This document shows positions 13,916 through 15,276 of a stretch of DNA of 15,276 bases, piece after piece. Every line of letters begins with the position of its first letter. Position 1 is the first letter of the stretch. This DNA comes from a virus (lineage: Duplodnaviria; Heunggongvirae; Uroviricota; Caudoviricetes), in the IMG/VR virus record IMGVR_UViG_2609459826_000005, positions 1 through 15,276 of that record, one strand, 5' to 3'. The translations under genes and the position numbers were made by a program. The notes under the pieces were generated by a model that saw only the letters and a program-made list of their open reading frames with translations, had not been told where the DNA came from and did no database searches.

Positions 13916-14083
13916 ATGGACAGCCAAGTAGTACAAAATATCATGCAATTTATGCTGCGTGTTAATCTTTCCGGACAGGAGGTCCCGGCGTTTAATGTTG
14001 CAATGAATGCATTGCAGGAAGAGTTGATCAAAAGTGAAAAAAACCATGAAAGGGAGGTTGAATAATGGCTTTGAAAACAAATG
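13916..14083 (+). CDS. small hypothetical protein (55 aa)
   Basis: ATG 13916 with GAGGA 6 nt upstream, in an AT-rich stretch right after the fibre gene; overlaps the next ORF by 19 nt. Below the 60 aa cut-off of the supplied ORF track; found by manual translation. Confidence 0.3.
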
Positions 14084-14310
14084 ATGCCGGTTCAGGGTTA
14101 TATATACGCGTCGAGTTACCACGCGTACATGGCAAATACCGTGCGCAGTTTGACCTTGTTCAATATGTTAACCACCCTGTCACAGGAGATAAGGCGGAAG
14201 TGGGTCGTGAAACAATGGAGTGTGATTACGATCTGAATGGAGCTAATGTAATTGAGCAATGCTACTTTTACGCCAAGGCCAAGGTGCCTTTTGGAGTTTT
14301 AGATTGCTAG
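14065..14310 (+). CDS. hypothetical protein (81 aa)
   Basis: ATG 14065 preceded by strong RBS AAGGGAGG at 14048-14056; no recognisable motif. Confidence 0.45.
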   Translation: MALKTNDAGSGLYIRVELPRVHGKYRAQFDLVQYVNHPVTGDKAEVGRETMECDYDLNGANVIEQCYFYAKAKVPFGVLDC

Positions 14311-14342
14311 GCTCTCGCGCAGATCTCTCTCCGATTGCACAT

Positions 14343-14609
14343 GCCATGGCTGCAGTAGCTGTGCAGTTATTACTTGCAATTACGTCTGGAAATTGGTGTT
14401 GTGGCGGTGTGCTGGGATGTTTATGGTTCATATCCAGAGAGCACACCCAAGCTGAATATCGCTGGATTGCTCAGTTCGGCGAAGGCAAGCGCGCCAACAT
14501 GCCTTGGTGGGGCGGGTTCGACTGGCGAGTGTGGAATCTGCCCAGCCTTCTCGACTGGCTGATTCCGGTGCTGGCCTGTAGTGTCGTTTATTTTGTCTCC
14601 ACCATCTGA
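14343..14609 (+). CDS. small two-helix membrane protein (88 aa), Trp-rich loop
   Basis: Start chosen at ATG 14343 because the listed start at 14259 lies inside the preceding ORF. Hydrophobic segments AAVAVQLLLAITSGNWCCGGVLGCLWFI and LLDWLIPVLACSVVYFVSTI flank a loop containing NMPWWGGFDWRVW. Confidence 0.45.
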   Translation, partial: AMAAVAVQLLLAITSGNWCCGGVLGCLWFISREHTQAEYRWIAQFGEGKRANMPWWGGFDWRVWNLPSLLDWLIPVLACSVVYFVSTI

Positions 14610-14665
14610 CTTCTGTAATCGGCATTGATAGGCGTCGCCTCATTGATCTGCACCCCTTTCAAAAC

Positions 14666-14685
14666 TACTGTATATAAAAACAGTA
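14666..14685 (+). promoter_or_regulatory. LexA (SOS) box TACTGTATATAAAAACAGTA
   Basis: CTGT-N8-ACAG with AT-rich spacer, 17/20 match to the E. coli consensus TACTGTATATATATACAGTA; sits directly upstream of AAGGAG (14687-14692) and the GTG start at 14702. Confidence 0.7.
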
Positions 14686-14701
14686 TAAAGGAGTGCAGAT
14701 C

Positions 14702-14941
14702 GTGCCCCGCAAATCAGACATTCACAGCGCATTTGTCGCTGCAATACAGCTAAATCCTAAGGGATACCAGTGTTTACGCACGGACGACTTTATTCGAGAA
14801 CTTGCCAAGGTGCACTGGCATTTCAGTCAGGAAGATGCCAATGACTGGATAGAGCGCTACCAGGAGTTCTTCGTCGATAAGACGCCTGATAACAGCCAGA
14901 ACAGGTTGTGGATCCTGCGCAACATGGGGAGGGTGCTCTGA
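14702..14941 (+). CDS. hypothetical protein (79 aa), first gene of a putative LexA-regulated operon
   Basis: GTG 14702 lies 9 nt after AAGGAG (the listed start at 14693 has zero spacing to the RBS). Stop TGA overlaps the ATG of the next gene (TGATG). No recognised motif. Confidence 0.5.
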   Translation: MPRKSDIHSAFVAAIQLNPKGYQCLRTDDFIRELAKVHWHFSQEDANDWIERYQEFFVDKTPDNSQNRLWILRNMGRVL

Positions 14942-15276
14942 TGGGGTTTCCTTCACCGGCGGGCGACTACGTAGAGCAGCGGTTAACACCGGAGCGTATC
15001 TGCGGGATCGGCATGGACAGCCGCATCCTCGAAACATCATCCGGCTTTGCCGTTATCGAGCCGTGCACCAGGCTGGTACAGAATCAGGTTCTGCTGATTT
15101 TGTCTGGCGGCCGGACTCAGTTTGCCCGGGTAATGGGTAGGGCGCTGATTTGTGATGATGGCGAAGCGATCGAAGGTGATGCAGCTGAAGAGGCTGAGGT
15201 TATGAGGCGGGTGACGCACTTTATCAACAGCACTGATGCTGCGATATCTCTTGAGGCGGCATTGGCGCAGTTTTGA
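14941..15276 (+). CDS. UmuD-like (LexA/S24 superfamily-related) protein, divergent
   Basis: 111 aa starting MGFPSPAGDYVEQRL, matching the N-terminal arm motif of UmuD/MucA (GFPSPAADYVEQRIDL / GFPSPAQGYEKQEL as recalled). The canonical GDSM serine and the catalytic lysine context are not evident. Stop codon is the last three bases of the window. Confidence 0.5.
   Translation: MGFPSPAGDYVEQRLTPERICGIGMDSRILETSSGFAVIEPCTRLVQNQVLLILSGGRTQFARVMGRALICDDGEAIEGDAAEEAEVMRRVTHFINSTDAAISLEAALAQF

Follow-up and report, generated by a model that had tools for sequence, protein, structure and literature searches.

The window, i.e. the whole stretch of 15,276 nt of phage DNA that was analysed, ends in a two-gene operon whose control region (14623-14700) is a predicted sigma-70 promoter combined with a LexA operator, and this region is homologous to the promoter-operator of the host umuDC operon. 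The two genes are translationally coupled, as their layout indicates. Judged by sequence, the operon is a phage version of the SOS mutagenesis module. A preliminary description of this DNA had proposed an SOS-controlled accessory operon at this place. The two-gene SOS operon stands, whereas the word accessory is too general for its content, which is a predicted winged-helix protein followed by a HumD/UmuD'-like protein. The proposed LexA control of the operon is well supported, because the operator is the same as that of umuDC, overlaps a umuDC-like -10 hexamer and is conserved in 75 of 76 loci. The LexA box can thus be taken as a real, functional-looking SOS operator.

Since P1 HumD, phage homologues of UmuD' under LexA control have been a known class, and the family of the second gene already bears the label 'UmuD-like' in some phage records as well as in the PHROG families. 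The literature search turned up no account of the homology of the whole control region to umuDC, of the loss of the catalytic dyad and its loop in the family of the second gene, of the obligatory winged-helix partner, or of the spread to IncX3-type plasmids. Few steps of the SOS response are gated as tightly as the activation of Pol V, and this activation drives mutagenesis after damage as well as the evolution of resistance. Here a ready-made UmuD'-type subunit, or a decoy, appears to be carried under the host's own umuDC operator, and such a module would alter the timing and the amount of host mutation after DNA damage or quinolone exposure.

The LexA operator and the promoter

The features of the region are the following (positions in the window):

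14566-14596, plus strand: terminator-like hairpin and T-run from a consensus scan (8 pairs, 3 of them G-C; tail TTTATTTTGT)
14623-14630, plus strand: upstream (C)ATTGATA element, first copy of the direct repeat, conserved
14630-14640, no strand assigned: palindrome AGGCGTCGCCT, not conserved
14643-14648, plus strand: -35 hexamer TTGATC, within the second CATTGAT repeat (14641-14647)
14666-14671, plus strand: -10 hexamer TACTGT, overlapped by the LexA box
14666-14685, no strand assigned: LexA operator TACTGTATATAAAAACAGTA, 20 bp
14688-14693, plus strand: Shine-Dalgarno sequence AAGGAG, 8 nt before the GTG start at 14702
14702-14941, plus strand: gene 1, 79-aa predicted winged-helix protein, phrog_3893
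14941-15276, plus strand: gene 2, 111-aa UmuD'/HumD-like protein, the ATG of which overlaps the TGA of gene 1 by one base

A LexA box was defined as a 16-bp core CTGT-N8-ACAG with an AT-rich spacer, inside a 20-bp palindrome close to the enterobacterial consensus TACTGTATATATATACAGTA. The box in the window matches this consensus at 18 of 20 bases. It is identical at 20 out of 20 positions to the LexA operator of umuDC as read from the K-12 genome, and the umuD operator in a published table is the same sequence (PMC3009722). The bare core motif occurs once in the window and at least once in 33 of 200 shuffled sequences, so the minimal motif alone is weak evidence, whereas the full 20-mer is strong.

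The site was scored with a position weight matrix (PWM) built from 18 known E. coli LexA sites, and umuDC and sbmC were kept out of the matrix to avoid circularity. The window box reaches 26.2 bits, which is above all 18 reference sites (13.4-23.8 bits) and above the best score over 100 shuffles of the window (17.7), while the runner-up site in the window stays below 7. Scoring of this kind had been suggested in the preliminary description, and its outcome, together with the identity of the full 20-mer to the umuDC operator, confirms the box at 14666-14685. The placement of the box directly 5' of the ribosome binding site was also correct.

Could the box be a chance match, or the inert relic of a captured umuD fragment? 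The frequency of the bare motif in the shuffled sequences would fit this reading, but the full site scores far above any shuffle. Moreover, a strong LexA box is found 14-24 nt before gene 1 in 75 of the 76 related loci that have gene 1; across these loci there are 26 spacer variants while the CTGT and ACAG arms are constant, and the distances to the -35 hexamer and to the start codon are fixed. We consider a chance match or a relic hardly credible.

The likeness to the host operon extends beyond the box. The K-12 sequence upstream of umuD is ATATTGATAgcctgaatcagTATTGATCTGCtggcaagaacagacTACTGTATATAAAAACAGTATAActtcagGCAGATtattATG, and its counterpart in the window is GGCATTGATAggcgtcgcctCATTGATCTGCacccctttcaaaacTACTGTATATAAAAACAGTATAAaggagtGCAGATcGTG. 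Both contain the 20-bp LexA box, the hexamers TTGATC and TACTGT separated by 17 nt, both ATTGAT repeats, the upstream ATTGATAG, TATAA after the box and GCAGAT in the leader. In other words, the flanks are homologous as well (ATTGATAG, ATTGATCTGC and TATAA), and a similarity to K-12 as high as that seen upstream of the box arose in only 4 of 2000 shuffles. In both operons a gene downstream encodes a UmuD-type protein, and codons 25-37 of umuD match gene 2 at 31 of 38 nt. The two operons differ in that the one in the window is prophage-borne, has no umuC downstream and has the winged-helix gene between the promoter and the umuD-like gene; in comparison to umuD, gene 2 lacks the first 24 codons and the Ser60 segment.

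A generic promoter scan called no promoter at this site, because TACTGT matches only three of the six bases of the -10 consensus (T1, A2 and T6). The promoter was therefore assigned from homology and conservation. Of 80 related promoters, 73 have retained TACTGT, and umuDC has it at the same position. TTGATC at a spacing of exactly 17 nt, as in K-12 umuDC, is present in 48 of the 80, and TTGnnC variants are seen in others. A 47-bp segment derived from umuDC, reaching from the -35 through the box, suffices for SOS-inducible expression (PMC9074414). Transcription would be expected to start at about 14678, so that the box would cover both the -10 hexamer and the predicted start, i.e. the classic layout for occlusion of RNA polymerase by LexA.

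The promoter and the box are followed by a leader of 23 nt that contains AAGGAG. The leader AAAGGAGTGCAGATC is conserved in the homologues, and its GCAGAT also occurs in the leader of umuD. Homologues have an ATG at the position of the GTG at 14702 and their proteins begin with MPR..., therefore 14702 is the correct start of gene 1 and not the upstream in-frame GTG at 14693. No RNA family was found by Rfam in 14000-15276.

The preliminary description had also pointed out a CATTGAT direct repeat flanking the palindrome, and had proposed a possible second operator there. The repeat is indeed present twice and its second copy was correctly placed, whereas the first copy lies at 14623-14629, one base off the position given earlier. 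The window holds 15 palindromes of the 5+1+5 form and 38 seven-base direct repeats (gap of 25 or less), and by these background counts the repeats and the palindrome are unremarkable alone. They appear to matter only through their conservation in homologues and in the host umuDC promoter.

This conservation is uneven. One of ATTGATAG, ATCAATAG and ATTAATAG is found in 45 of the 80 distinct related promoters, and the K-12 umuDC promoter has ATTGATAG. Such an element goes beyond the needs of the promoter core, and this would speak for an operator of another regulator. However, 35 of the 80 promoters are without the upstream element, and the second repeat is fully explained by the -35 hexamer at its canonical 17-nt distance, the first being the ATTGATAG element. 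The distance from repeat to repeat is also not quite the same in the window and in K-12 umuDC (one base of difference). As for the palindrome, its 5+1+5 form is kept in 5 of the 80 related promoters and a 4+3+4 form in 11; in one of the related loci (L002) the position reads AGGTGCCGCCG, and the palindrome is absent from the K-12 umuDC promoter. A second operator is therefore improbable in our view, and the palindrome in particular is not supported as one. The upstream element by itself is possibly an upstream promoter element or a factor site.

The window represents the tail end of the late region of a lambdoid siphovirus, with genes for the tape measure, TipJ and the tail fibre. The terminator-like hairpin lies inside the 3' end of the ORF that precedes the cassette (14259-14609), and folding of the RNA of 14555-14665 gives a z-score of -2.2. 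On evidence that we grade as weak, the hairpin may insulate the cassette from read-through of the late operon. The ORF itself encodes 116 amino acids with a hydrophobic C-terminus and belongs to phrog_1443, a family of unknown function. Only some of the loci have a related gene ahead of the cassette, therefore the conserved module begins at about 14620.

The two gene products

Gene 1 has no match in Pfam, NCBIfam or PADLOC, its PHROG family is of unknown function, and all of its 168 homologues are named hypothetical. The AlphaFold2 model (pLDDT 88) has the topology H-S-H-H-S-S, which corresponds to the H1-S1-H2-H3-S2-S3 order of a winged helix-turn-helix. A profile search against PDB sequences returned noise only, and the search against viral folds returned only the gene's own family and generic winged-helix proteins. 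A DinI/ImpC-type protein was considered and rejected: there is no PF06183 match in Pfam, and the hhalign probability against the neighbouring phage DinI is 0.1%. A LexA-like motif was seen inside the gene, where the codons for NWHFSQ (14813-14832, CACTGGCATTTCAGTCAGGA) score 6.7 bits on the PWM and read CTGG-N8-CCAG in many homologues; this weak motif is probably coincidental.

Gene 2 is assigned to phrog_3469 ('UmuD-like'), and its start, MGFPSPA..., corresponds to the post-cleavage Gly25 of UmuD. Taken as a single sequence, the protein shows little else of this relationship. There is no Pfam match at E <= 0.1, and the gathering threshold of Peptidase S24 (PF00717) is missed. The NCBIfam HumD model (NF051876) gives 25.5 bits against a cutoff of 120 and covers residues 1-24 only, which is not sufficient for the equivalog. 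A single-sequence search finds UmuD'/HumD over residues 1-20 only (GFPSPAGDYVEQRL). The picture is different when a profile of the family, built from 22 diverse members, is used: this matches UmuD/UmuD' at full length with an E-value of 8e-10 (PDB 8gmt_B, residues 25-137) and an hhalign probability of 97.7%, so that homology to UmuD' is seen over the beta-domain. The AlphaFold2 model of gene 2 has a pLDDT of 81.5, and its top Foldseek matches in the PDB are the C-terminal domain of LexA and UmuD' (TM 0.55-0.6) at weak E-values of 0.01-0.06.

The Ser-Lys dyad of UmuD (Ser60 and Lys97) is missing. A deletion of 11 residues removes the SGDSM segment together with Ser60, and an Ala is aligned with Lys97 (the window reads QFAR, the consensus FAK). 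A cleavable N-terminal extension with a Cys/Ala-Gly site is also absent, i.e. the protein begins with Met-Gly. We conclude that gene 2 is a shortened HumD-type homologue of UmuD' without the catalytic dyad. The loss of about 11 residues around Ser60 makes it less certain that the protein would bind UmuC in the manner of UmuD'. A distant member of the family (P0271, 141 aa) keeps a UmuD-like N-terminal extension with a Cys-Gly cleavage site, and is either an evolutionary intermediate or a recombinant.

The C-terminus of the window copy is also unusual. The last ~15 residues (15229-15276) are STDAAISLEAALAQF, and they replace the DDxP(V/I)I tail of the family. This variant is common, with 89 blocks in the index of the collection. 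Gene 2 is followed in the native E. coli contig by an AT-rich stretch that contains a hemerythrin-domain gene, and an insertion at the 3' end of gene 2 is the probable source of the variant C-terminus. An origin from attR was rejected, as more phage genes follow gene 2 in that contig.

Proposed role in the host Pol V pathway

The closest characterised relative of gene 2 is HumD of phage P1. According to the P1 annotation and the alignment, gene 2 is of the HumD type, i.e. a phage-borne UmuD' in its pre-processed form under a LexA box. P1 HumD and N15 gp26 share with it the MGFPSPA start and the lack of a cleavable extension. In P1 the LexA box lies about 20 nt upstream (the annotated site in the humD record is at 19 nt), and N15 gp26 is also found downstream of a tail-fibre gene. 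The differences are in length (105-111 aa in the gene 2 family, 129 aa in HumD) and in the active site, since HumD keeps DS and K, whereas gene 2 is without the loop of the nucleophile Ser and has Ala in place of Lys97. The C-terminal DDxP(V/A)I tail of HumD is present in most members of the gene 2 family but not in the window copy. Finally, gene 2 is preceded by a co-translated winged-helix gene, while P1 has the divergent lxr gene. In the annotation of the P1 record HumD 'functionally complements E. coli UmuD'', and P1 HumD is described as a functional complement of UmuD' (PMC9603915).

We consider it probable that the umuDC-type promoter and operator drive the gene pair and that the product of gene 2, here called mini-UmuD', acts in the Pol V pathway of the host; this is the best explanation of the data as a whole. 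In an undamaged lysogen, LexA dimers on the box would block RNA polymerase. Under persistent DNA damage, RecA* would drive the self-cleavage of LexA and the gene pair would be expressed. As the operators are identical, the timing and the threshold of induction would be the same as those of the host umuDC operon. Mini-UmuD' would then serve as a ready-made surrogate of UmuD' that pairs with host UmuC and does not have to wait for RecA*-dependent processing. This role is proposed by analogy with P1 HumD, and our certainty about it, as about any action in the Pol V pathway, is moderate to low; in more general terms, mini-UmuD' may stand in for UmuD' or modulate Pol V of the host. As for the winged-helix protein, it would be a partner or an adaptor of mini-UmuD'. 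The two genes need not act only together, because phage HK225 carries gene 1 without gene 2.

The missing active site may also be read in the opposite sense, namely that mini-UmuD' is an antagonist that forms dead-end heterodimers with UmuD/UmuD', occupies UmuC or binds in the groove of RecA*. Pol V mutagenesis, or the co-protease activity of RecA*, would then be damped during induction in a DinI-like way. The lack of the catalytic Ser segment and of the Lys is in line with such a role, and so is the size of the protein, which is 20-25 residues shorter than HumD. It is also in line with the genomic neighbourhood, as 20 of 88 loci, and likewise mEp390, HK225, Eeyore and the native E. coli contig (L088), have the cassette linked to a phage dinI whose LexA box is either its own or shared. 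UmuD and DinI both bind the groove of the RecA filament (PMC9926225), which would suit an antagonist as well. On the other hand, the closest characterised relative promotes mutagenesis and does not block it, and UmuD can do without its catalytic residues after processing. The former is reportedly due to McLenigan (1999), who is said to have found that P1 HumD promotes mutagenesis and complements UmuD'; the latter, the dispensability of the catalytic residues of UmuD after processing, was reportedly found by Nohmi et al. in 1988. We regard an antagonist, the chief competing reading, as unlikely, and prefer mini-UmuD' as an active participant in the Pol V pathway.

Distribution of the cassette and its relatives

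Related cassettes were collected from E. coli prophages, from cultured phages and from 80 IMG/VR contigs. The cultured phages include mEp390, HK225, HK140, Eeyore, phiES15 and many Klebsiella and Enterobacter phages. A megablast search of the region against phage records found nothing, and the relatives were reached by distant and protein searches. The cassette is frequent in prophages of E. coli, Klebsiella, Enterobacter and Leclercia. The one-base overlap of stop and start between gene 1 and gene 2 is present in 75 of 79 loci, and in one case the two genes are naturally fused into a single protein (P0301, 187 aa). There are also forms without gene 1 (L060, L068 and L079), in which the promoter and leader are placed directly on ATG-GFPSP. 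In most records both genes are labelled 'hypothetical', and some phage records miss gene 1. The RefSeq record of mEp390 (NC_019721), for instance, is without an annotation of gene 1 (L004, 2501-2737), and in its place it calls a 129-nt 'hypothetical protein' on the minus strand.

The arrangement of dinI varies between the loci. Gene 1 and a divergent dinI have a single box between them in mEp390, HK225 and Eeyore, while in L013-L020 a divergent dinI with double boxes stands in front of gene 2. The prophage with the exact gene 2 of the window adjoins yciI in E. coli, and the sequence on its flanks matches E. coli at 100%. Just beyond the point that corresponds to the window end, the native contig (L088, 6336-7972) carries the hemerythrin-domain gene, dinI and a DNA invertase gene, and the host genes yciI to ompW follow after the invertase. 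The dinI of this contig is on the minus strand and has its own LexA box TACTGTTTATTTATACAGCG at L088 7302. The right end of this prophage is a small SOS island, because dinI with its own LexA box follows gene 2.

Two kinds of exceptional loci were noted with respect to the control region. In L091 (1-142), which has an identical operon, unrelated GC-rich sequence replaces everything upstream of the ribosome binding site, the LexA box included; either an insertion element or a break in the assembly could account for this. In Shigella phage phiSD1 (L092, 1200-1265) and in Klebsiella phage TSK1 (Drexlerviridae, Webervirus; L093, 1200-1272) the module of -35, LexA box and leader is found after the tail genes, with the pattern TTGATCTGC...TACTGTATA(T/A)AAAAACAGTAT...GCAGAT. 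Downstream of it there are only an ORF of 1-3 codons, non-coding sequence and terminators. In these two phages the module could be a remnant or a LexA-controlled non-coding transcript.

LexA-controlled antirepressor operons are known from prophages of the Gifsy, 186 and N15 type (PMC3121763), and the cassette might be an induction module of this sort, comparable to Gifsy dinI-gfoA, 186 tum or N15 antC, with one of the two proteins acting as the antirepressor. In layout it resembles them: a hairpin lies upstream of the LexA box, and the small genes that follow are outside the immunity region, often next to dinI. The LexA box before small prophage genes outside the immunity region and the association with dinI are indeed common to the cassette and to Gifsy dinI-gfoA-irsA and 186 tum. 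Gene 1, a small protein of winged-helix fold and unknown function, would be a suitable candidate. However, the proteins of the Gifsy and 186 operons are unrelated to those of the cassette, and gene 2 is clearly derived from UmuD'. Furthermore, a repressor that RecA cannot cleave was not found in the two carriers examined, the E. coli LR-28 prophage and mEp390. Both encode repressors with an HTH and a Peptidase_S24 domain, which should self-cleave with RecA*, so no antirepressor would be needed; the immunity region of the phage in the window lies beyond the analysed stretch. The pair is also found on conjugative plasmids, which have no lysogeny switch. Because of the S24 repressors of the two carriers and the presence of the pair on plasmids, we judge an antirepressor role very improbable, and the Pol V pathway remains our preferred setting for the gene pair.

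The plasmid relatives are a pair annotated as 'umuD' (WP_001549892 and WP_004199403). Here too a 79-aa winged-helix gene, with 39% identity to gene 1, is directly followed by an S24-type protein starting with MGFPSPA..., for which the hhalign probability against the phage family is 98.7%. The plasmid partner, with 127 aa in its intact form, is longer than gene 2. It has retained the loop, and its score of 25.6 bits is above the Pfam S24 threshold of 23.3. The homologous pair of winged-helix and S24 genes was found in 1033 plasmid records, mostly of conjugative IncX3 plasmids, the group that spreads blaNDM. As the module is frequent in prophages and a related pair is present on IncX3, an answer to the question of function would be widely applicable.

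This distribution leads to a tentative and rather doubtful reading, according to which the pair is a dedicated module of mobile elements that takes over or blocks the Pol V/RecA* checkpoint of the host. The pair is found in lambdoid prophages and, in the longer form, on more than 1000 conjugative plasmids, and its expression would set in at precisely the umuDC threshold of LexA. For example, activation controlled by the element could replace the RecA*-gated activation of UmuD, and the winged-helix protein could be a so far unrecognised partner of Pol V or of the UmuD family.

Some plasmid copies have an altered upstream region. In the IncX3 plasmid pNDM-QD29 (L095, 2370-3100) and in pSa44-CIP (L096, 2370-3130) only the right half of a LexA box precedes the pair (CATATGCATACAGCT / CATGTATATACAGTA). 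The two plasmids have the same sequence upstream of the pair, and a gene for the ISKox3 transposase adjoins this sequence in pNDM-QD29. An insertion may have removed the LexA control of the pair in these plasmids. In IncX3 the plasmid S24 gene is also cut by IS26.
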